Positions 53,289 through 64,000 of a DNA stretch of 64,000 bases are shown here, one piece after another. The DNA is taken from assembly GCA_965261735.1 (NCBI GenBank), contig OZ253470.1, positions 4,896,001 to 4,960,000 of the forward strand, read 5' to 3'. Both the position numbers and the translations under genes were made by a program. The notes under the pieces were generated by a model. The model made no database searches, was not told the origin of the DNA, and worked only from the letters and a program-made list of their open reading frames with translations. Position 1 is the first letter of the stretch. Every line of letters begins with the position of its first letter. The stretch is from Alphaproteobacteria bacterium (GTDB taxonomy: Bacteria; Pseudomonadota; Alphaproteobacteria; SHVV01).

Positions 53289-53588
53289 ATGGCCCCCTTC
53301 GCCCACATCCTCGAGATCAAGCTCGATGCATCCTCGCGTGATGCGTTCGATTCGCTGCTGCGCGACAACGCCAAGGTCACGCGGGCCGAGGCGGGCTGCC
53401 TCTCCTACACCGTGCACGTCGCCGACGAGGACCCCCACCGCTACGTGCTCTACCAGATCTTCGCCGACGAAGCGGCCTTCGAGGTCCATCGGCAGTCGCC
53501 CCACCTCGAGCACTTCCGTGAACAAGCGGGCGGCATGTTCACGCTCGAGAAGGTGACCAACCTAGGAACGCGCCCGGACCCCGATTGA
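53289..53588 (+). CDS. ABM-domain (putative quinol monooxygenase) protein
   Basis: EAGCLSY and AFEVHRQSPH. Confidence 0.85.
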   Translation: MAPFAHILEIKLDASSRDAFDSLLRDNAKVTRAEAGCLSYTVHVADEDPHRYVLYQIFADEAAFEVHRQSPHLEHFREQAGGMFTLEKVTNLGTRPDPD

Positions 53589-54755
53589 CCCGCGGCACGG
53601 CGGGACGCGACTGAGGAGACGCTGGCATGGCGGCCCCCCGAACAAGGGCCCGACCTGCCTCACGCTGGCGCTGATCCGCGACGACGGGCCCTTGCTCGGC
53701 GCCTAACAAACGGGCGTCTCCACGTTCCCGATATTCACGGCCCTGGCGCGCTGCCGAGCCGATCCGTAGCGGATTCGTTGGGGTGCCCTCGAATTGCCCC
53801 GATGGCGCCCCGTTGCCGCCATTCTCGCCGACGACCCTAGCGCCGACTGACGCGCAACGGCTTCGGCCGGCACGGGGAGCGAGGCGAGGGAATGATGAAA
53901 TCTGCAGGCGAAACACCGCCAAGGCGGCAATGGAAGACCTTGTCGTCGTGTCTGCGATCATGGCGCTTGCGCTGTTCGCCACAGCGGCCCCGGGCGAGCC
54001 TGCGCACACCGCGACGCAAGACCAATCGGCCTGGGTCATGGGCGACCCACTGGGCGCCGGCTCGGCTGCGAGCGCGTTCGCGATGCCGGCGGCCGCGCTG
54101 TTGGTAGCGACCGTAAATTTCCCATTTGTAACGACCCAAAATTTCTCACTTTGGGCTTGTCGCTGAAGGCGTCCCGGGCCGCTCTGTTGGCTTTGCCAAC
54201 AGAGCGGGATCGGTGCGCGGATGTACAAATGGGAGACCAGGATGTTGTTGAAGCACTATCTGGACCGGGGTGTCTCGAAGGCGGAGCTGTCGAGGCGGTT
54301 CGGGGTGAACCGTCGGACGATCCACAATTGGGTCGATACCGGCCAACTGGACCGGGATCTGGCGGCCGGTGCGCGAGGGTATTCGCCCCGTCCGCCTGTG
54401 GCCCACAAGCTGGACCCCTACAAGGCGATCATCGACGCCCGTCTTGAGGCGTTCCCGAAGCTGTCGGCGAAGCGGCTTTTCGATGAGGTCCGCGCTGCGG
54501 ACTACCCGGGCTGCTACTCTCGCGTGAACGACTACGTGCGGGCGACGCGACCGCGCGAACCGGTTGAATCGCTGGTCCGGTTCGAGACGCCGGCGGGGCG
54601 TCAGGGCCAGGTGGACTTCGGCTGCCCTGGGGCCGGCGCCATGCCCTGGTGATCGTCCTCGGCTACTCCCGGCTGCTGTGGCTGCACTTCTATACTCGGC
54701 AGACCATGCCGGTCGTGTCCCAGGACGTGGTGTAGGAGTTGTTGGAGCCTCTGTT

Positions 54756-54826
54756 AGCTGTGGGTAGGCGGCTTGCCGTAGCGACCGCCGAGAGTCTGGC
54801 GTAGGCAAGCCGGCTATCCACAGCGG
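54756..54826. repeat. 71-bp palindromic element, copy in the IS256-A leader
   Basis: Reverse complement is 59/71 identical, ungapped, to 60230-60300. Confidence 0.85.
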
Positions 54827-56063
54827 AGGCCATCGCGGTTCCGGTTTAGGGTTGGGCTAGTGCAAACCAACCTGACCCGAAGGAGAACCACGATGACCCA
54901 GGACATGATGACCCTACGCGCGCTTTTGGAGAAGAGCTCCGATGCCGATCTGCTTTGCGAGATGATCGGCTTCACGGCCGAGCGGCTGATGGCACTGGAG
55001 GTTGAGGGCCTGACCGGCGCCGGGCACGGCGAGCGCTCGGCGGATCGTATCACCCATCGCAACGGCTACCGCGACCGGTCCTGGGAGACGCGGGCCGGCA
55101 CGGTCGAGCTGAAGATCCCGAAGCTGAGGAAGGGAAGCTACTTCCCGGGCTTCCTGGAGCCGCGGCGGATGGCCGAGAAGGCGCTGGCTGCGGTGATCCA
55201 GGAGGCCTACATCCAGGGGGTGTCGACCCGCTCGGTCGACGATCTGGTTCAGGCGATGGGGATGTCGGGCGCCTCCAAGAGCCAGGTCTCCAGGCTGTGC
55301 GGCGAGATCGACGATAAGGTCACCGGCTTCCTCGATCGACCGCTGGAGGGCGACTGGCCCTATCTGTGGCTCGACGCCACCTACGTGAAGGTGCGCCAGA
55401 CCGGACGCATCGTCTCGGTCGCGGTGACCGTGGCTGTGGCCGTCAACGACCAAGGCCGCCGCGAGGTCCTGGGCGTGGCGATCGGCGCGTCGGAGGCCGA
55501 GACCTTCTGGACCGAGTTCCTGCGCTCGCTGGCCCGGCGCGGGGAGTGTCAGAAGATTTGTGCTCGGGCCGTTTTGCCAGACATTGACGAACCTTTCGCC
55601 GAAGATGACGGCGAACTGTGTTTTGGCCTCGAACCATTCCCGCGGCGGACGTTTCCACGTCTCGGCCGCATGATCGAGAACGAGATATAACAACTTCGAG
55701 GCGGCCTCGTCACTGGGGAAGTGGCCGCGGGTGCGGACAGCGCGCCGGATCTTGGCGTTGAGCGACTCGATGGCGTTTGTGGTGTAGACAATCCTGCGTA
55801 CCGCCTCGGGGAAGACAAAGAAGGGCGAGACGTGTTCCCAGTTGCGCCGCCAGCTCTGTGCGATGGCCGGATATTTCTCGCCCCAGGGGCCGGCCTCGAA
55901 GGCATCCAGCGCCGCCAGGCCGGCATCGGCGTCCTTGGCCCGGTATACGTCCCTGAGCGCCTTGGCCACATGTTTTCGATCCTTCCATGACGCAAAATTC
56001 ATGGAATGGCGGATCAGGTGGACGATACAGGTCTGAACCACAGTCTCGGGGAAGGTGGCGTTG

Positions 56064-57457
56064 GGCTGTGTCTCGAAAGTGGTGGAAATTTGAGGATGGC
56101 GTAATCTCCGGGTGACAAGACAACCACCCAATCGGCGGCTAGCACCGCCAAGGAGATCACGCCATGAAGAACACTACCGAGACTTCCGCGCTTTCGCTAC
56201 TGGCCAATGACGCCGGCTATGATCCGATCGAGGACCGGCTGCGGGAGAACATCAGATCCACGATCGAGGCCGTTTTTGAGGAGGAACTTGCGCAGTTTCT
56301 CGGGCGCTGCCGATACGGTCGAGAGGACGCGCTTCGGCAAGGGTATCGGAACGGGCACCGGGAGCGGCAACTGACGGGGACATTCGGGACCGAGAGGGTG
56401 AGCGTGCCGCGTGCGCGGATCGTTGAGGAAGACGGTCGGGCGTCGGAATGGCGTTCGCGGGCGCTGCCGCGCTACCAGCGGCTGACCAGAAAGGCCGAGG
56501 CGCTGATCGCTTCGGTGTATCTGTCCGGAACCAACACGCGGCGGGTGAAACGCGCGCTGTTCGGGCTCTTCCGGGGTGCTGTGAGCAAGGACGTTGTGAG
56601 CCGGGCGTGGCGCAAGGTGAAGGTCGATTGGGACGCCTGGTGCAGCCGTGGCCTCGCGGATGAGGATATCGTTCGGCTGATCCTTGACGGCACTGTGATC
56701 AAGACCCGACTGGACCGCAAGGCCACCAACATCTCGGTTCTCGCGGCTATAGGGGTGCGCCGGGATGGCCAGAAGGTCTTGCTTTCGATCGGGAATATGG
56801 GCGGAGAAAGCCAGGCGGCGTGGCGCCAGTTCCTCGACGACCTTGATGCGCGTGGACTGAAACGGCCCGGGTTTGTCATCGTCGATGGCGCGCCGGGACT
56901 GGAGGCGGCTCTGTCGGCGCTTTGGGGCGATGACCTTCCCGTTCAACGCTGCACCGTGCACAAGCACCGCAACCTTCTGGGTCATGCTCCCAAACACATG
57001 CATGACGAGCTGAGCGAAGATTACCGCGATATGATCTATGCCGACACTGCCTCCGAGGTGGAAACCCGCCGCAAGGCGTTTGTCCGCAAGTGGCGGCTGA
57101 AATGCAGGGCCGTCGCGGACAGCCTCGCAGAAGCGGGCGACAAGCTCTTTACCTTCACGCGCCTGTCCAAGAGCCAATGGAAATCAGCCCGAACGACCAA
57201 CGCCATTGAGCGTCTCAACGAGGAGTTCAAGCGCCGGATCAAAACACAGACCGTGCTGCCGTGTCCCGAAACAGTGCCGATGCTCCTCTGGGCACTCCTC
57301 GCTTCCGGCCAAATCCAGATGCGCAAAGTCGATGGATGGGAAACCCTCGATCAGCTAATCGCCGACGAAACCCTTGACCGCGCAGCCTGACCGCCGCAAA
57401 ACTCAACCCGCTCGGAGAGGCGCCAAAACCAATTTCCACCACTTTCGAGACACAACC
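56064..57457 (+). mobile_element. IS256-family element C, copy 2, complete
   Basis: 27-bp IRs gg(c/t)tgtgtctcgaaagtggtggaaatt. 8-bp TSD tggcgttg at 56056-56063 and 57458-57465. Confidence 0.97.
56164..57390 (+). CDS. IS256-family transposase, intact
   Basis: YRNG, VPRAR, DDE motifs, 408 aa. Confidence 0.96.
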   Translation: MKNTTETSALSLLANDAGYDPIEDRLRENIRSTIEAVFEEELAQFLGRCRYGREDALRQGYRNGHRERQLTGTFGTERVSVPRARIVEEDGRASEWRSRALPRYQRLTRKAEALIASVYLSGTNTRRVKRALFGLFRGAVSKDVVSRAWRKVKVDWDAWCSRGLADEDIVRLILDGTVIKTRLDRKATNISVLAAIGVRRDGQKVLLSIGNMGGESQAAWRQFLDDLDARGLKRPGFVIVDGAPGLEAALSALWGDDLPVQRCTVHKHRNLLGHAPKHMHDELSEDYRDMIYADTASEVETRRKAFVRKWRLKCRAVADSLAEAGDKLFTFTRLSKSQWKSARTTNAIERLNEEFKRRIKTQTVLPCPETVPMLLWALLASGQIQMRKVDGWETLDQLIADETLDRAA

Positions 57458-59393
57458 TGGCGTTGATCGCCTCGGGGAAGCCCTTGAGACCATCGACGAC
57501 GGCGAGCAGGATGTCCTGCACGCCCCGGTTCTTGAGCTCATTCATGACGCGCAGCCAGAACTTGGCGCCTTCGGTCTGCTCGATCCACAGACCGAGGATC
57601 TTCTTGGTGCCATCGGGAAGAATGGCGAGGGCGATATACACCGCCTTGTTGCGAACGAACCCCTCGTCGCGGATCTTGACCCGGATGGCGTCGAAGAAAA
57701 CGATGGCGTAGCAGGCATCCAGCGGCCGGTTCTGCCATTCGCTCACCTCCTCGAGAACGGCATCGGTGACCGTTGAGATCAGGTCCGGTGAGACCTCTAT
57801 ACCGTACAGCTCCTGAAGGTGACCGCGGATCTCGCGGACCGTCATGCCGCGGGCATACATGGAGATGATCTTCTCGTCGAAGTCCGGGAACCGGCGCTGG
57901 TATTTAGCGATCAGCTGCGGATCGAAGGTGCCGGCCCGGTCACGTGGAATATCCAGCGTCACCTTCGACGTACCCGTGAGGACCGTCTTCTGCGATCGGC
58001 CGTTATGGCGATTGGTTTTTCCATCCGCCGTTTCCGCATCGAGATGCGCGTCGAGCTCCGCATTCAGGACACGTTCCGACAGCCCTTTCTTCAACTCGTC
58101 AAGCAGACCGTCCTGGGTGAATACCGTTTCCGGATCACGCCCCTCCAACAGCTGGTCCAATAGTTCCTTCTCGATTGCCATAGGATGCTCCTTTCTTTTT
58201 CATCACTATGGCCCAAAGCACAAAATTCCGGATACTCCCCCGGCGCGGGCTGCGCGGCGTGAAGCTGGTGATCTCCGACGACCACAAGGGCCTGAAGGCC
58301 GCCGCGACCCGGATCCTCGGCGCCACATGGCAGCGCTGCCGCGTGCACTTCGCCCGCAACCTGCTGGCCCATGCCGGCCGCCAGGGCCGGCGCGTCGTCT
58401 CCGCCTTCGTCGCCACCGCCTTCGCCCAGGAGGACGCCGACAGCGCGAAGGTCCAGTGGCGCCAGGTCGCCGACCAGCTCAGGCCCAAGGTGCCCAAGCT
58501 GGCAGTTCTCATGGACGAAGCCGAGCACGACGTCCTCGCCTACATGAGCTTCCCCAGGGAGCACCGCCAGAAATTGCACTCCACAAACCCGATCGAACGG
58601 CTCCATGCCGAGGTCAAGCGTCGCACCAACGTCGTCGGTATCTTTCCCAACGAAGCCGCCATCACACGGCTCGTCGGCGCCATCCTTCTCGAGCAGAACG
58701 ACGAGCGGGCCGTCTCAAGGAGATACATGACGCTGGAATCCATCGCTCCGCTGAGCGATGGTGTCCCCATCACGCTGCCCACCGTGGCAGCCTGAACGTC
58801 CCGGCCCTACCCGCCGGGAGCCGCGTAGAGCGCAACGCTCTTACACCACTCCGCGGGACACGATCACCATGCCGGTCCTGATGGAAGGTCTGGAGAGCGC
58901 CTTCGACCGGTTCGGCGGGGTTCCGGAGGAGCTGCTGTTCGACCAGATGCGCGCCGTGGTGCTGTCCGACGACCGCGGGGCCGGCGGCGGCCTGGTGCTG
59001 AACGAGGAGTTTCTGCGGTTCGCCGCGCACTGGGGGGTTCATGCCGCGCTCGTGCCGACCCTATCGGGCCCAGACCAAGGGCAAAGTGGAGCGCCCGATC
59101 CGCTACATCCGCGAGAGCTTCTTCTACGGCCGCTCGTTTGCGAATGACAACGATCTCAACGAGCAGGCCGTGCGCTGGCTGGAGGGCACAGCCAACGTCC
59201 GCCGGCATGCCACGACCGGGGAGCGTCCTGTCGACCGCTTCGAGCGCGACGAGCGAGCGGTGCTTCTCCCCTTGGCGAACCATCCCTATCGACGTCTCGG
59301 CGTCCGGCATGCTCCGGAGCCCGCGCCGCGGCGACTGCCGGCAACCGTGAAGGTCGAGCGGCGACCGCTTAGTGTCTATGCGGAGGCGCTGCA

Positions 59394-60191
59394 ATGAACG
59401 CTCCGGCGCCGGCCCGGCGCGACCGGCTGCGGGCAATGCTGGCGGACCTCAAGATGCCGGGCGCGCTGGAGGCCGTCGACGGCATCCTCTCGGACGCCGA
59501 CGGCGGCACGATCTCGGCGGTCGAGGCCATCGAGCAGTTGCTGAACGCCCAGATCGTGCTGCGCAACAACCGCCGTCTCCAGACCGCCATGCGCTCTTCG
59601 CGGCTGCCGGCTGTGAAGACGCTCGATCAGTTCGACTTCGCCTTCCAGCCCAGCATCAAGCGCGAGCAGATCGAGAGCTTGCACGAGCTCGGCTTCCTGG
59701 ACCGCGGCGAGAACGTGATCCTGCTCGGCCCACCAGGCGTCGGGAAAACGCACTTGGCGATCAGCCTCGCGATCGCGGCGGCCGAGGCCGGCCGGCGCGT
59801 CTACTACGGCACGCTCGCGGCGCTGATCGAGTCCCTCACCGAGGCCAAGGCCGCCGGCAATCTGACCCGGCGGCTGCGCGTGCTCACCCATCCGGCCCTG
59901 CTGGTGGTCGACGAGATCGGCTACCTGCCGGTCAACCAGGACGGCGCCGTGCTCTTCTTCCAGCTCATCAACGCCCGGCACGAGAGGGCGTCGACTGTGC
60001 TGACGTCGAACAAGGGTTTCGAGGACTGGGGTGGCGTGCTCGGCGACGAGGTCATGGCGGCGGCTCTCATCGACCGCCTTGTGCACCACTGCCACATCGT
60101 CAACATCCGGGGCAACAGCTACCGGATGAAGGAGCATCAGAACCTGCTGCAGTCCGGCTCGGATCGACGCAGGAAAAGAGCCGCCGCGTGA
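59394..60191 (+). CDS. istB: IS21 helper ATPase
   Basis: GPPGVGKTHLA, VVDEIGY, TSNK, IDRLVHH, GNSYR. ATGA overlap with istA. Confidence 0.96.
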   Translation: MNAPAPARRDRLRAMLADLKMPGALEAVDGILSDADGGTISAVEAIEQLLNAQIVLRNNRRLQTAMRSSRLPAVKTLDQFDFAFQPSIKREQIESLHELGFLDRGENVILLGPPGVGKTHLAISLAIAAAEAGRRVYYGTLAALIESLTEAKAAGNLTRRLRVLTHPALLVVDEIGYLPVNQDGAVLFFQLINARHERASTVLTSNKGFEDWGGVLGDEVMAAALIDRLVHHCHIVNIRGNSYRMKEHQNLLQSGSDRRRKRAAA

Positions 60192-60229
60192 TCGCCGGCT
60201 CAAACGGAGACAGGAGCGGTGACACCCGC

Positions 60230-60300
60230 CCGCTGTGGATAACCGGGTTGTCGCCGCCAGACTCTTGGCGGTCGCTGCGCCAACCCGGTTACCTACAGCT
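60230..60300. repeat. 71-bp palindromic element, copy in the IS21 trailer
   Basis: gctgtggataaccgggttg...caacccggttacctacagc hairpin. TGTGGATAA at 60234-60242. Confidence 0.85.
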
Positions 60301-60604
60301 CGACCAAGTCCGACACCCCAAACACCGCGTCTGGGGGTACGACCGAACGCTCAAAGTGAGAAATATTTCGATCGACAAAAGTGGGAAATTTTCAGTCGCA
60401 ATTGACACGCGCCGCATGTCGCCGCGCCGCCGCCCGTACTCCCGGGTAGTCGCCTTGGCTCGGCCCCCTCGTCGAGCCCGACGTCGGTTCCGAGGCGTGG
60501 CAACACGGCTCCGAGACCGCCGTCGCTCCGCCGCAGGCCTCGATCGATACGGAGCCGCGCTGCGGTCGCACGGCGAAGGGCTATCGGCTCCTCGGCGGCG
60601 TTCG

Positions 60605-61622
60605 CTAGATGAGGTAGGGACGCTCCGCCGGCGCGGCCGCTCCCGCCACGGCTGGATCGGGCTTGCGCGCGACGTAGAATTCGAGGCCCATACCATCGGG
60701 GTCGCGGATGAGGAAGCTGCGCTTGGTGGCGCTGTCGATCCTCTTCTCGAGCGCGACACCCGCACCCGCCAAGGCCGCCTCGGCGGTATCCAGCTCCGCC
60801 TCGTCGGCGACCTGATAGCCGTAGTGGTGAACCGACTGCGGCGAGCCCGGCGCCTGGCGGACTGAGGGCGATGTCGAAGGCATAGCCCGTGGCCGGGCCG
60901 GCCAGGCACACGAGCCCGCCGTCGTCGGAGGTGTGGATCAGTTTGAGACCGGCGACCTCGGCATAGAACGCGACCATGCGATCGAAATACCGCGTCATCA
61001 GCACCGCATGGGTCAGCCGCAGCGGGTGGATGAGCGCCTCCGCCACGCGCTTGATCTTAGGATTCGTGTGGTAGCGCGCGTCCGTCGCCGCGGGTTCCGC
61101 GTTGGGGTCCCAATTGCCGGTCATTTCGCGCCCCGGAATGTGGCCGTCGAAGCAGGTCCACCAGTCCTTGACCGAGTCGGCATAAAACTCGTGCAGGTAG
61201 CCGTCGGGGTCGAACACATAGACGCTGCGCGACACGGTGTGGTCGACGACGCGGTGGATGTTGAGGCCCGCCGCGACGGCGCGGTTGTAGGCATCGACGA
61301 GCGCCTTCTCGTTCTCCAGCTCCCAGCCGAAATGGTTGAGCCCGGCCTGGATACCGCGGCCCTTGGGGATCTGCAGGTGGCCGCCGCGGCCGATGACCGG
61401 CTTGGTGCCGTCCATCGTCTGGATGAGCGCCAGGTCGTGGTGCGTGTTGCCGTTGGTCAGCAGAGCCGCCTCCATCTCGGTCTCGCGGAAGCACCCCTCG
61501 AAGCCACAGATATCGCGGTAGAAGTGCAGCGACTTCTGGAAGTCGCCTACGAAAAGGTTGGCGTGCCCAAGCCGGCGCGGTGAGAACCTCACGGGCTGCA
61601 CGTCGTGAGTCTGGATCGTCAT
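60605..61622 (-). pseudogene. Two-domain VOC/extradiol dioxygenase-like protein, frameshift near 60863
   Basis: LGHANL, HHDLAL, NHFGWE, DPDGYLHEF. C-terminal VHHYGY...DPDGMGLEFY lies in another frame. Confidence 0.85.
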
Positions 61623-62769: not shown

Positions 62770-63875
62770 CTTGCCTATCCGGTTAACGCCCATGACCGCT
62801 ACATGTAGGGTGCCGCCACTCTCCCGAGTAAAGCTCGGCATAGGTTGGAGCAGAGGTGTCGCCCGCGATGCCGAGCAATGAGCGGAAGGCGTTGAACGGG
62901 TAGAACCGCCTGTTGAAGCGGAAGGTGAACTCGTTGAGGTAGGCTTGTAGGTGCTGGTGGCTAACGCCGTGGTGGATACCGATCAGCCACGTCTTCAGGT
63001 TGGCGAAAACCAGATGGATGATCGGCAGGTATTGCTCGGCAACCTCTGGATCACCACACTCGGCAACAGCGAAGTGCTCATAGCCGCGCTTACCGAGGCC
63101 AGCATAGCCGCTCCAATCGTCAGTAACGATCAGCGATCGCGGCGCGACGGTGCTCTCGACGAACCCACAGAGCGACTCGGCGCTACGGTCGAGCACAACG
63201 GCGAGCCGAACGCGTCCGGCATAGCGTCCGTCTTTCCGGTTGTCGAGCTTGGTGCCCGGCTTTCGATGACGCACCTCGATGGCACAGGAGACGGGAACCT
63301 TGTGGTGAACACCACGGCCTTCCCCACGCGTTCGCCCGCCAACCCAGGTTTCGTCCACCTCAACATGGTTCTTGGGCTGTCCACCGATCCTGTCTTGGTT
63401 GGGCCGCACCATGCCCGAGCGGAGCTTGTGGAGAATTTGAAAGGCCGTCTCGTAGCGCGAAAGACCAAGTTGCCGCTGAAACTGCACGGCGGACATGCCG
63501 GGCGTCTGACTGGCGACCAGATAAGCGGCCCAGAACCAGACGTTCAGCGGAGTGTGGCTACGCTCCATCACTGTTCCCACCGTCAGCCCGGTGTTCTGGC
63601 GGCACTTGCGGCAGCGCAGGACGCCAGGGCGGTTTTCAAAGTGGAACGGCTCTCACCGCCGTGCCGCAGTGCGGGCAGGCAAAGCCGTCTCCCCAGCGGG
63701 CTTTCTCCAGGTAGGCGGCGCAGGCCGCATCATCGGGGAAAAGTCGCTGGAACTCGGGTAGCGAATGCGGGAATGGGAGATCGGCGCGGTCGAGAACATC
63801 CATGGCGCGCTCCCCTATATCCGGGTTGCGCCCATTCTAGCCCTAGTGGGTGTGGGTGTCAACCGGATAGGCATG
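62770..63875 (-). mobile_element. IS1595-A copy 5, frameshifted by a 1-bp insertion near 63655
   Basis: 8-bp TSD gctcattc at 62762-62769 and 63876-63883. Confidence 0.96.
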
Positions 63876-64000
63876 GCTCATTCGTCGATCATACGCGAAA
63901 AAAAGGGGCTTACATACTTAACTTGACAGGCGGCAATCCCGCGCTCGCGTCAGTCGGTACGAACGTAACACAACAGCCCAAGACCGGAAAAACCACTCTT

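Follow-up and report, generated by a model that had tools for sequence, protein, structure and literature searches.

Why should two insertion sequences (ISs) from unrelated families carry the same hairpin? The question is raised by a 64,000-nucleotide stretch of contig OZ253470.1 (the window; assembly GCA_965261735.1, lineage SHVV01 of the Alphaproteobacteria), in which a preliminary description had noted one palindrome twice: in the leader of an IS256-type transposase gene, and again, inverted, downstream of the istB gene of an IS21 element. Here we ask whether the two copies are truly related, what has been conserved in them, where else the hairpin occurs, and which function would best account for it.

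Two copies of one hairpin in two IS families

Copy A, read on the forward strand, and the reverse complement of copy B (Table 1) are identical at 59 of 71 positions without a gap, exactly as had been described; the likeness ends sharply at the edges of the hairpin, and the flanks do not align, which agrees with the earlier claim that they are unrelated. Chance likeness of the two copies is excluded, because a covariance model built from five local variants gives both of them 94–105 bits (E ~1e-20 to 1e-23). The assignment of the host elements to the IS256 and IS21 types is borne out by Pfam matches: Transposase_mut in the IS256-type gene (E 9.5e-123), IstB_IS21 in istB (E 1.3e-80), and rve plus HTH in IstA.

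Table 1. Hairpin copies and host-element features, numbered from the first nucleotide of the window
Feature	Position	Strand	Remarks
Hairpin cassette copy A	54756..54826	+	Covariance model 104.8 bits; stem 54757-54825
Hairpin cassette copy B	60230..60300	- (model orientation)	Covariance model 94.4 bits
IS256-family element IS256-A	54711..58865	+	~61 copies in genome
IS21-family element	54099..60407	+	About 12-14 copies in genome
istB, 265 aa	59394..60191	+	Pfam IstB_IS21
IS256-A transposase gene, 5' part	54893..55543	+	Pfam Transposase_mut
13-bp perfect hairpin, IS21 left-end leader directly before istA	54179..54207	+	Differs from cassette

Each copy is predicted to fold into one long hairpin, as had been proposed, with energies well below those of shuffled sequences: the RNA folds reach -39.8 to -47.7 kcal/mol (z -4.3 to -5.9, with none of 200 shuffles as stable), and the DNA folds -28.6 and -26.6 kcal/mol (z -6.2 and -5.5). 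Both compensatory pairs singled out in the preliminary description exist, at 12/59 (G-C versus A-T) and 17/54 (C-G versus G-C) of the 71-mer, one off the numbering originally given; a third pair, 13/58, is G.G in copy A and C-G in copy B. The DnaA-box-like end is likewise present, as TGTGGATAA in copy B and as CTATCCACA, an 8/9 match, in copy A.

Copy A has the bulge GCGACC, the loop GAGAGTCT and the base GCTGTGGGTAG / CTATCCACAGC. It lies in the sense of the IS256-type transposase, with the left tip of the element 46 nt outward and the ATG 67 nt downstream, and the hairpin itself does not cover the ribosome site. In a single minimum-free-energy (MFE) fold of this leader, the left repeat is predicted to pair over a long range with the start-codon region, with the cassette as a closed domain inside. 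Copy B is located 39–40 nt past the istB stop codon, antisense to istB and 107 nt inside the right tip of the IS21 element.

The borders of both host elements can be delineated. IS256-A begins with its left inverted repeat GGTCGTGTCCCAGGACGTGGTGTAGGAG (54711-54738) and is flanked by the 8-bp target duplication ACCATGCC (54703-54710 and 58866-58873). It is itself broken at 55543/58243 by two more nested IS256-family elements; the uninterrupted forms are evident in RNA-library contigs as the joints 54702>58866 and 55532>58239, and the transposase gene, where intact in other copies, encodes 409 aa. The IS21 element, whose istA gene is split by the insertion of IS256-A, has the ends TGTTGGTAGCGACC... 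and ...GTCGCAATTGACA, with repeated ...AAATTTCCCAC motifs. The 13-bp hairpin directly before its istA (predicted fold of 54150-54225, -42 kcal/mol, z -4.5) shows that the window's IS21 element keeps a hairpin in its 5' slot too.

A covarying stem with an invariant bulge and loop

The cassette of ~71 nt consists of an outer stem of 21–23 bp, the asymmetric bulge GCGACC, a 5-bp inner stem and the loop (A/C/G)GAGTC. Comparison of 59 distinct variants shows that the hairpin structure is under selection: 93.8% of 1650 stem cells are paired, versus 32–53% when the partner strand is slid; both sides have changed in 13 of the 28 pairs (152 cells); and the covariation score was matched by none of 500 shuffles. 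The middle of the outer stem varies freely provided that pairing is kept, and the bulge and the loop GAGTCTGG are almost invariant. The preliminary description had missed this conservation, as well as the GANTC site in the loop and the different hairpins found in equivalent slots of relatives. The bulge was not part of the search pattern; among 40 distinct IS256 leaders it is conserved about as strongly as the transposase-binding inverted repeat, and more strongly than the rest of the leader. We considered a pseudoknot between the bulge and the flanks or the IS tip (GGTCG/CGACC; TAGCGACCG in the IS21 left repeat) and rejected it: the matches are 5–9 nt long and unconserved across contexts, with a chance likelihood, judged by eye, of roughly 0.02–0.08.

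Another key observation concerns the strand that folds. G.T/T.G pairs outnumber A.C/C.A pairs by 103 to 16 overall and by 81 to 4 in the IS256 context, counts that overstate the independent events because the variants are related; most of the bias comes from two inherited pairs, 19-74 and 46-54 in alignment A4. Since the non-Watson-Crick pairs are G.U rather than A.C, it is the transposase-sense strand that folds. The one copy lying the other way round in the IS256 slot (L285) has two non-Watson-Crick pairs, each of them G.U when read in the transposase sense; an Acidisoma copy shows three G.T/T.G pairs in this sense as well. For IS21 lineage 1 the counts are closer (18 versus 11), a weak bias that fails to track the sense strand of istAB. 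These strand-specific G.U pairs support the earlier suggestion of a structured RNA or single-stranded DNA (ssDNA).

Occurrence, hosts and slots

The source genome contains 61 + 12 full copies of the cassette and one truncated copy, all within IS256-A or IS21 ends; among the 74 matches from blastn and covariance-model scans (the model search scored 150 of about 2780 candidates), none lies elsewhere. Pattern, model and protein-anchored searches together yielded well over 100 distinct variants, nearly all from Alphaproteobacteria. Their hosts are one IS256 clade, at least three IS21 lineages, and the neighbourhood of IS110-family transposase genes, the latter adjoining the cassette in 6 of 81 metagenome matches; in four of these six loci it lies 7–60 nt past the stop codon, in either orientation. 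Matches in a plasmid collection were confined to IS256 copies from Azospirillum and Acidisoma (13 and 11 records), and viral contigs gave one match, with an IS256 left-end motif. Cultured carriers include Azospirillum sp. TSH58, A. brasilense and Acidisoma sp. PAMC 29798.

IS21-borne copies reach 96–97% identity to particular IS256-borne copies, and the cassette has moved by copying from one IS family to another on several occasions. Together with the covariation, this upholds the view in the preliminary description of a structure-selected module exchanged between them.

Two kinds of slot are occupied. The 5' slot, from the transposase-binding end to the first gene, is used by the IS256 clade, by one IS21 lineage (lineage 2) and in one IS110 case; the 3' slot, directly past the last gene, is used by two IS21 lineages and by IS110-family elements. 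IS alleles with and without the module, which the preliminary description had proposed to seek, were found: the equivalent slot of a relative may contain a different hairpin or no hairpin at all. Among 18 distinct IS256 relatives (transposase at least 55% identical), seven have the cassette and five have an unrelated strong hairpin in its place (dG -39 to -62); L194 and L202 have no hairpin in the slot. The cassette is present in 5 of 28 IS21-family loci, and another hairpin (dG -30 or lower) stands between the istB stop codon and the terminus in 14; in one AT-rich IS21 element a textbook A-run/hairpin/T-run terminator occupies this interval. Slots at element borders are thus shown to hold hairpins generally. 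With respect to replication, IS256-A insertions have no directional bias (33 co-directional versus 28 in a hand tally of 61 copies, with the origin placed at ~3.17 Mb and the positions of origin and terminus uncertain).

A putative control element at the IS border

We hypothesize, at a probability of roughly 0.4 and from sequence comparison, that the cassette, a portable hairpin, exerts its effect on transposase transcripts at the element border and docks a host factor. Its active form would be chiefly RNA, of the same sense as the transposase transcript: a self-contained stem-loop of high stability could stop, process or stabilise transcripts that cross the border, so that transposase expression would be insulated from outside transcription and the element's own transcripts would be kept from reading out. 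The invariant bulge and loop may be the docking site of a factor common to Alphaproteobacteria. We infer the insulating or processing role, the existence of the host factor, and RNA as the active form; this last point is not proven, because a preference for G.T is equally expected of ssDNA. In four studies, RNA-library contigs span 54711-54985 without a break, taking in the IS tip, the hairpin and part of the transposase gene, and are compatible with transcription of the hairpin; having neither strand nor ends, nor a control for DNA carry-over, they prove neither transcription nor termination.

The hairpin is not a canonical intrinsic terminator, since no T-run follows it on either strand and consensus scans of 54600-55000 and 60100-60500, on both strands, returned no terminator-like site; nor did they return a sigma-70-like promoter site. 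A candidate promoter within the hairpin, picked by eye (GAGTCT-N17-TATCCA), was rejected, as its -35 box matches at 2/6 positions and its spacer is the variable stem. Further considerations weigh against a barrier at the border. For a generic barrier, neither the bulge nor the loop would have to be invariant, and IS256-family elements without the cassette thrive in the same window: two others are present, one with ~39 copies in the genome.

The success of these cassette-free elements also suits an alternative that we regard as unlikely, in which the cassette does nothing for its host IS, being either a hitchhiker of the REP/MITE kind or else a scar or target of IS110-family elements. The stem would then be kept only because an unfolded 70-nt insert would disturb the leader, and the loop because it is recognised by the mover. 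Such a palindrome could account for the spread of the cassette over three unrelated IS families, where it faces either way and occupies 5' as well as 3' slots, and for close relatives that lack it or have other hairpins. The closed domain of the predicted leader fold (a single MFE fold) is a place that would tolerate a self-folding insert. Furthermore, the IS110-family genes beside the 6 of 81 metagenome matches bring to mind ISPpu9, an IS110-family element that a published account describes as inserting into REP palindromes.

On the other hand, independent scatter outside IS elements, which the preliminary description had named as contrary to its proposal, was not seen in the source genome, and a genome scan gave one possible solo copy (L123) in 81 matches. 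No target duplication is visible at the cassette edges in the IS256, IS21 or IS110 contexts, and the stem co-varies also inside the IS21 3' context (L103/L110 versus L108), which is free of the leader-fold constraint. Relatives of one IS110 carrier (61–66% identity; 4 of 401 genomes had a match to the carrier) lack the cassette, which therefore does not belong to the conserved make-up of that element.

The preliminary description had attached weight to the DnaA-box-like end. Extended beyond that description, the argument is that an ssDNA hairpin presents a DnaA box in its stem, from which bound host DnaA would load the replicative helicase in the manner of the ABC-primosome 'A site', and that this would aid the replication step of copy-out-paste-in transposition. 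The relaxed DnaA box consensus is TT(A/T/G)TNCACA. The 3' arm is TTATCCACA or a one-off variant of it in most copies, and the unconstrained Azospirillum variants TTTTCCACA, TTATGCACA and TTGTCCACA all fit the relaxed consensus; T is kept at box position 4 in ~90% of variants, even though C would convert a G.T pair into G-C. The likely host origin, near the GC-skew minimum, contains TGTGGATAA twice within 33 nt (C1:3171135-3171167), and the preference for G.T over A.C is as compatible with ssDNA as with RNA. In E. coli, hairpins that bear a DnaA box are described as supporting DnaA-dependent DnaB loading on ssDNA (PMC6127211, citing Masai 1990/1995).

The link as originally put forward is nevertheless not supported: compensated variants keep the pairing and lose the box. 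Five unique variants, GCTGGGG...TTATCCCCAGC, have a compensated change in the CACA core (TTATCCCCA; GCTGGGG...CCCCAGC); TTACCCACA, TTACTCACA and TTACGCACA also occur, with pairing kept or improved; IS21 variants with TTATCCTCA are present in three copies; and the Acidisoma copy has no box and an intact loop. A DnaA site would not explain the most conserved parts, the bulge and the loop, nor the two orientations of the cassette relative to the nearest end (L285, L268, L282, L304). The DnaA-box-like end thus appears, from these variants, to be common but not required, and we consider a DnaA-loading hairpin distinctly improbable.

Slightly less probable again is a portable cell-cycle coupler: a folded single strand with a DnaA box in the stem and a GANTC site for CcrM/GcrA in the loop. 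If this were true, fork passage, DnaA status and hemimethylation would set the timing of transposase expression or the priming of the 'copy-out' step, and unrelated IS families would have captured the same device.

The methylation component taken by itself, in which the loop GAGTC is a GANTC site for CcrM (and GcrA) whose methylation state, once the fork has passed, would set when the transposase is expressed or the ends are used, we hold to be very improbable. Dam sites have such a timing role in IS10/IS50. The loop contains GAGTC in every model-only variant (A, B, B2, C, D, E, E2, F) and in the protein-anchored L184, L197 and L179, and the cassette is, to judge by record titles, essentially restricted to the Alphaproteobacteria, the group that uses CcrM. 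The CIR repeats (CcrM-associated intergenic repeats) of Caulobacter, Brucella and other Alphaproteobacteria are described as folding with GANTC at or in the terminal loop (PMC2229807). Against this, the Azospirillum lineage retains the hairpin with a GAGCTGG or GGCTGG loop and no GANTC, other hairpins in the same slots lack GANTC, conservation extends beyond GANTC to the whole 10-mer and the bulge, and a methylation switch does not need a hairpin. In addition, the ccrM homologue of the source genome has an in-frame TAG (possibly an assembly error) while 73 cassettes are intact.

IHF sites lie just inside the transposase-binding ends of IS10 or IS1. That the cassette is, by analogy, a double-stranded accessory site for a host architectural protein is the least probable of these readings: its position directly internal to the terminal repeats in IS256 (abutting GGTGTAGGAG in most variants) and IS21 lineage 2, and behind repeated IstA-type motifs 107 nt from the IS21 right tip, would fit, but the covariation and G.U bias indicate intramolecular pairing that a duplex does not need, the cassette may lie anywhere between about 28 and about 107 nt from the tip, and IS110 contexts have no terminal repeats of this kind.

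Significance and comparison with known systems

Control hairpins in IS leaders and palindromic repeats are already known; searches of Rfam and the literature returned no description of one covarying cassette, with invariant bulge and loop, common to IS256-, IS21- and IS110-type elements in many alphaproteobacterial lineages. If functional, it would indicate a host factor, or a general RNA/ssDNA mechanism, that is used by different transposons, and would mean that IS families trade non-coding control modules in much the same way as genes. The cassette is a good candidate for a new RNA/DNA motif family, and a marker for a large IS group that is massively expanded in IS-rich genomes such as the SHVV01 source genome.

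The comparison with Rfam that had been suggested placed the cassette in no family: a search of 53500-61500 against Rfam 15 (both strands, E up to 10) gave three chance-level matches only, the one on the hairpin being mir-4672 at 19.4 bits, versus a gathering score of 98.

REP/BIME and MITE sequences are, like the cassette, GC-rich imperfect palindromes in many copies, at times beside IS110-family transposase genes. Unlike REPs, the cassette is not extragenic (73 of 73 full copies in the genome lie inside two ISs); unlike those of MITEs, its inverted-repeat arms have no flanking direct repeat, and solo occurrence is limited to the one possible copy L123. CIR repeats, reportedly described by Chen and Shapiro in 2003, share with it an alphaproteobacterial distribution, folding and GANTC in the loop; judged by description only, they differ in their length of about 110 bp, in having two arms joined by a linker, and in being intergenic, whereas the cassette consists of one hairpin of 71 nt within ISs. 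The ABC-primosome 'A site' also has TTATCCACA in a hairpin stem, but the predicted box of the cassette is variable, with compensated changes in several variants, and its conserved parts lie elsewhere.

The outside end of IS50 has a DnaA box, and IS10/IS50 are under Dam (GATC) control. These are parallels for host replication or methylation signals in IS ends that couple transposition to replication; such sites are short duplex sites with no selected hairpin, and are not shared cassettes. IS200 is described as having, at its left end, a bidirectional terminator (nt 12–34) and a 5'UTR stem-loop, and as being protected against impinging transcription (PMC4513863). There, as in the IS256 clade and IS21 lineage 2, a stable hairpin precedes the transposase gene, a short way in from the left end, and in IS200 transposase expression is kept low. 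The IS200 hairpin is ~23 nt long, whereas the cassette, of putative function, has 71 nt, no T-run and an invariant bulge and loop, and is common to unrelated IS families, in 3' slots as well.

Two inverted copies of one hairpin in an IS nest

We examined a nest of insertion sequences (IS) at 54099-60407 that is four levels deep: an IS21-family element holds IS256-A, which holds a minus-strand IS256-family element, which in turn holds a further IS256-family element. Uninterrupted forms of the IS21 element and of IS256-A both occur in contigs from public sequencing runs (joints 54702>58866 and 55532>58239). The preliminary description had placed inverted 71-bp copies of a hairpin, here called the cassette, in the leader of IS256-A (copy A) and behind istB of the IS21 element (copy B), and both sequences are present there. 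Alignment of copy A with the reverse complement of copy B confirms 59/71 identity with no gaps; in a wider alignment the similarity starts and stops at the hairpin foot and the flanks stay unaligned, as had also been claimed. A long hairpin is predicted for both copies by RNA folding (-39.8 to -47.7 kcal/mol, z -4.3 to -5.9; 0/200 shuffles as stable) and by DNA folding (-28.6 and -26.6 kcal/mol). The two compensatory pairs first described are real (12/59 and 17/54 in our numbering, one position off the original), and the DnaA-box letters are likewise correct: copy B contains TGTGGATAA and copy A the 8/9 match CTATCCACA. Read inward from the nearest tip, the two copies have identical orientation.

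Positions of the two hairpin copies and their host elements in the window
Feature	Position (strand)	Profile match	Remarks
IS21-family element	~54099-60407		split by IS256-A
istB	59394-60191	Pfam IstB_IS21, E 1.3e-80	
IS256-A (IS256 family)	54711-58865	Transposase_mut, E 9.5e-123	8-bp duplication ACCATGCC
Copy A	54756-54826 (+)		46 nt inside IS256-A left tip; ends 67 nt before ATG 54893; gene-sense
Copy B	60230-60300 (-)		39 nt past istB stop; 107 nt inside IS21 right tip; antisense to istB
Minus-strand IS256-family element inside IS256-A	55544-56063 and 57461-58240		3-5 genome copies
IS256-family element inside the minus-strand element	56064-57460		~39 genome copies

The source genome, a single 5.03-Mb contig of 65.7% GC, is heavily IS-expanded; for example, a 1.1-kb repeat at window 62779-63890, with an IS1595-type transposase (DDE_Tnp_IS1595, E 7e-37), has ~170 copies. 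A blastn search of this genome with the cassette returned 82 places: 61 full A-type copies (59 identical, two with one change), 12 full B-type copies, including one 94% variant in a diverged IS21, one truncated copy and eight chance matches of 14-18 nt. Our covariance model recovered the same 74 places and none besides, with 150 of ~2780 candidates scored. The copy number of IS256-A equals the number of A copies, and every B-type copy occupies one and the same position in IS21-type right ends. Since every genome copy lies inside IS256-A or IS21, the hairpin multiplies here only as a passenger of these two ISs. Near-identical IS256-A sequence also occurs in metatranscriptome libraries of several studies (runs X1-X14, some labelled sponge metagenome), this RNA evidence consisting of contigs only.

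The folded structure is under selection

We aligned 59 distinct variants and counted pairs for a structure of 23 + 5 bp. Standard pairs fill 93.8% of 1650 cells, as compared with 32-53% when the partner is slid by 1-3 columns; both-sided changes occur in 13 pairs (152 cells). None of 500 shuffles matched the observed pairing, the double-change count or the covariation score, and the earlier proposal of a structure-selected module is thereby borne out. The stem middle is swapped wholesale among variants (e.g., AAGTAGCCCGCC, AACCGGGTTGGCG and AAGCAGCCCGCC, each with its complement).

The search patterns behind most of these variants dictate the 3' loop half and the 3' foot, and conservation there is accordingly no evidence. 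The bulge GCGACC lies outside the search pattern, yet it is invariant or nearly so; in a set of 40 distinct IS256 leaders its conservation equals that of the transposase-binding terminal repeat and exceeds that of the remaining leader. The loop GAGTCTGG is also kept in the pattern-free model matches (variants A, B, B2, C, D, E, E2 and F) and in three protein-anchored loci (L184, L197 and L179).

Another key observation concerns the strand that folds: G.T/T.G pairs can form in RNA or single-stranded DNA of the strand shown, and A.C/C.A combinations become such pairs on the opposite strand. The counts are 103 against 16 for all variants, 81 against 4 in IS256 context and 18 against 11 in the window's IS21 lineage. 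Two inherited positions account for 75 of the 103, and the variants are related to one another, so these counts greatly overstate the independent evidence. The one cassette inverted in an IS256 slot has two non-Watson-Crick pairs, both of which read as G.U on the transposase-sense strand, and the Acidisoma cassette has three such pairs. These sequence patterns favour a folded single strand, transposase-sense in IS256, over a symmetric duplex site, which agrees with the original idea of a structured RNA or ssDNA.

Distribution and exchange between IS families

At E <=0.1, the covariance model matched seven genomes among 61 relatives, including the window's own. Two of the seven are weak (E ~0.09), and one, from another family, carries a diverged IS21 homologue (IstB 88-89% identical) with a diverged cassette. 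When 185,579 species representatives were scanned for an exact pattern, at least 98 stretches matched, with 80 loci listed (81 matches, 57 distinct sequences). Many cassette records are metagenome bins; among the matches listed, nearly all species-representative records are titled Alphaproteobacteria (Defluviicoccus, Acetobacteraceae, Stellaceae, Reyranella, Bradyrhizobium, Xanthobacteraceae and others), and one contig is binned as Actinocrinis. One match, from Ktedonobacteria, does not form a hairpin. Scanning metagenomes with another pattern gave at least 120 stretches; together with one viral contig, 81 matches and 66 distinct sequences were listed. In the plasmid collection, matches occur only in IS256 copies of Azospirillum (11 and 10 records) and Acidisoma (2 and 1).

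Sequence contexts of the cassette among the matches listed
Scan	Context	Matches	Remarks
Species representatives	IS256-type left ends	61/81	53 with transposase gene ~88 nt downstream in sense; 8 by left repeat only
Species representatives	IS21 lineage of the window	16/81	
Species representatives	Distant IS21 lineage (IstA 32-37% identical)	2/81	hairpin in left end upstream of istA, in sense
Species representatives	No IS recognised (locus L123)	1/81	
Species representatives	Chance match	1/81	
Metagenome/viral	IS256 left ends	67	
Metagenome/viral	IS110-family transposase neighbours	6	Pfam DEDD_Tnp_IS110 + Transposase_20
Metagenome/viral	Flank of distant IS21 lineage	2	
Metagenome/viral	Third IS21 lineage (IstB 38% identical)	1	cassette behind istB
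Metagenome/viral	Inverted cassette in IS256 element (locus L285)	1	
Metagenome/viral	Unresolved context	1	

Three of the six IS110-adjoining cassettes are in sense, 7-34 nt past the stop; two are inverted, ~60 and 300 nt past the stop, and one is inverted 12 nt ahead of the start. At two loci (L275 and L178), an IS110-family transposase gene is found immediately beyond the left tip of an IS256-type element.

Because the transposases of the host families are unrelated, sharing of the cassette amounts to its transfer. Identity to particular IS256-borne cassettes is 96-97% in the distant IS21 lineage, whose cassettes are 92% identical to each other and at most 89% to those carried by the IS21 lineage of the window; the latter are themselves 80-90% identical to one IS256 subgroup. 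A few bases flanking the stem travel with it (TCGG(T)TGG before, GCGG after). Once the IS110 contexts and the third IS21 lineage are counted as well, these transfers imply no fewer than three or four separate captures, so that the exchange first suggested from two families now takes in IS256, three IS21 lineages and IS110 contexts. IS nesting, as in the window, may be a source of the proximity for cassette recombination.

The slots are generic and their content turns over

IS256 relatives were also collected by anchoring on the transposase rather than the motif (43 of 401 class-level genomes match), and the leaders of 18 distinct relatives (Tnp >=55% identical) were read and folded. An unpublished genome, G245, that came up in this search supports none of the claims made here. 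Of the 18, seven contain the cassette (three A-type; Azospirillum and Acidisoma variants counted), five have strong but unrelated hairpins equally far from the ATG (dG -39 to -62) and one has a weak hairpin; at L194 and L202 the terminal repeat runs directly into the conserved leader with no hairpin between, and in three the upstream sequence is uninformative. An IstB-anchored search matched 28 of the 401 genomes, and the cassette is present in five of the 28 IS21-family loci examined. The closest cassette-free relative among them (IstB 84%) has a small hairpin only; 14 elements that are more distant have some other hairpin (dG <=-30) in the stretch from the istB stop to the terminus, where one AT-rich element has a classical A-run/hairpin/T-run terminator and six short-tailed elements have no such hairpin. 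The slots are thus generic, and their content turns over among IS relatives. Within the window, the IS21 element has a different, perfect 13-bp hairpin ahead of istA, and the two nested IS256-family elements have short leaders without the cassette.

A second, unrelated hairpin family of ~100 nt (…GGTAGTCCACAGG…CCTATGGACTACC…) was noted downstream of istB at L230, L231 and L236; it is kept in three distant IS21-family elements in an identical 3' slot, which suggests that other exchangeable hairpin cassettes exist. The nested 39-copy element has a leader of another, cassette-free type, whose fold pairs the ribosome site and start codon with upstream sequence (56064-56170; -40 kcal/mol, z -2.9). 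In one minimum-free-energy fold of the IS256-A leader (54711-54910), the left terminal repeat pairs with the start-codon region (CGUGGU/ACCACG; GUCGUGUCC/GGACAUGAU) and the cassette forms a closed domain within that pairing, which could act as fold-back inhibition of read-in transcripts.

Possible functions

That the cassette is structure-selected and exchanged is far more secure than any mechanism. We tentatively propose, with a probability of about 0.4, that it is an RNA-level border element with host-factor docking. It would stop, process or stabilise transcripts entering or leaving the element, so that transposase expression might be kept insulated, and the invariant bulge and loop would be the docking site of a putative host factor. 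This proposal draws on the selection of a self-contained stem, the sense-strand bias, the transcript-border position in three IS families, the slot hairpins and true terminator in relatives, and the precedent of IS200, whose left-end terminator and 5'UTR stem-loop are said to protect against impinging transcription (PMC4513863). Terminator-site scans around both copies indicate that the cassette is not a canonical terminator.

A selfish or tolerated palindrome, multiplying with no service to its hosts, we consider unlikely. We are more doubtful that the cassette is a single-stranded DnaA/primosome site, as its DnaA-box end would suggest. Most copies have TTATCCACA at the 3' foot, Azospirillum variants, in which the box was unconstrained in the search, have TTTTCCACA, TTATGCACA and TTGTCCACA, and box position 4 is T in ~90% of variants despite costing a G.T pair; in E. 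coli, a DnaA-box hairpin can load helicase on ssDNA (PMC6127211). Two strict boxes also occur in the likely replication origin of the source genome, at C1:3171135-3171167, the sole place outside cassettes where two lie close together. However, five distinct variants, from one genome with several such copies, have GCTGGGG...CCCCAGC, in which the CACA core is altered with compensation; TTACCCACA, TTACTCACA and TTACGCACA are found with pairing kept or improved, an IS21 variant has TTATCCTCA in three copies, and the Acidisoma copy is box-less with bulge and loop intact. The box therefore looks like a frequent state of the stem foot, and is not the most strongly constrained feature of the cassette. 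The AT-rich region around the likely origin (C1:3170900-3171400) holds TGTGGATAA twice and CGTGGATTA within ~35 nt, and lies ~0.12 Mb from the cumulative GC-skew minimum, far from dnaA (C1:770345).

GANTC is the target of the alphaproteobacterial CcrM methyltransferase, and the loop GAGTC is such a site. A CcrM/GcrA switch would fit this loop, and published CIR repeats likewise expose GANTC in a loop (PMC2229807). We nevertheless hold a switch to be improbable: the Azospirillum lineage and the other slot hairpins are without a loop GANTC, and the constraint spans the whole bulge and loop, beyond GANTC. In Azospirillum IS256 leaders that have lost the loop GAGTC (L178:2085-2105, L210-L212), AGAGTCT(G/A)G occurs ~25 nt downstream of the hairpin, where other relatives have TAGGGTTGG. 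The best CcrM-like N6_N4 methyltransferase gene of the source genome (C1:1998316-1998984) has an in-frame TAG (…HETLI*…) at what is presumably a Trp position in relatives, and is either a pseudogene or the product of an assembly error. A duplex accessory site for the transposition complex is very improbable, given the G.T/T.G excess.

Comparison with known systems

The comparison with Rfam recommended in the preliminary description matched the cassette to no family, and our full-text literature searches gave no description of it. The closest known systems are the left-end hairpins of IS200, REP/MITE-type palindromes, CIR repeats and the A site of the ABC primosome; the cassette fully meets the definition of none of these (for CIR repeats, as judged by their description). 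We place it among the control or palindromic modules of mobile elements.
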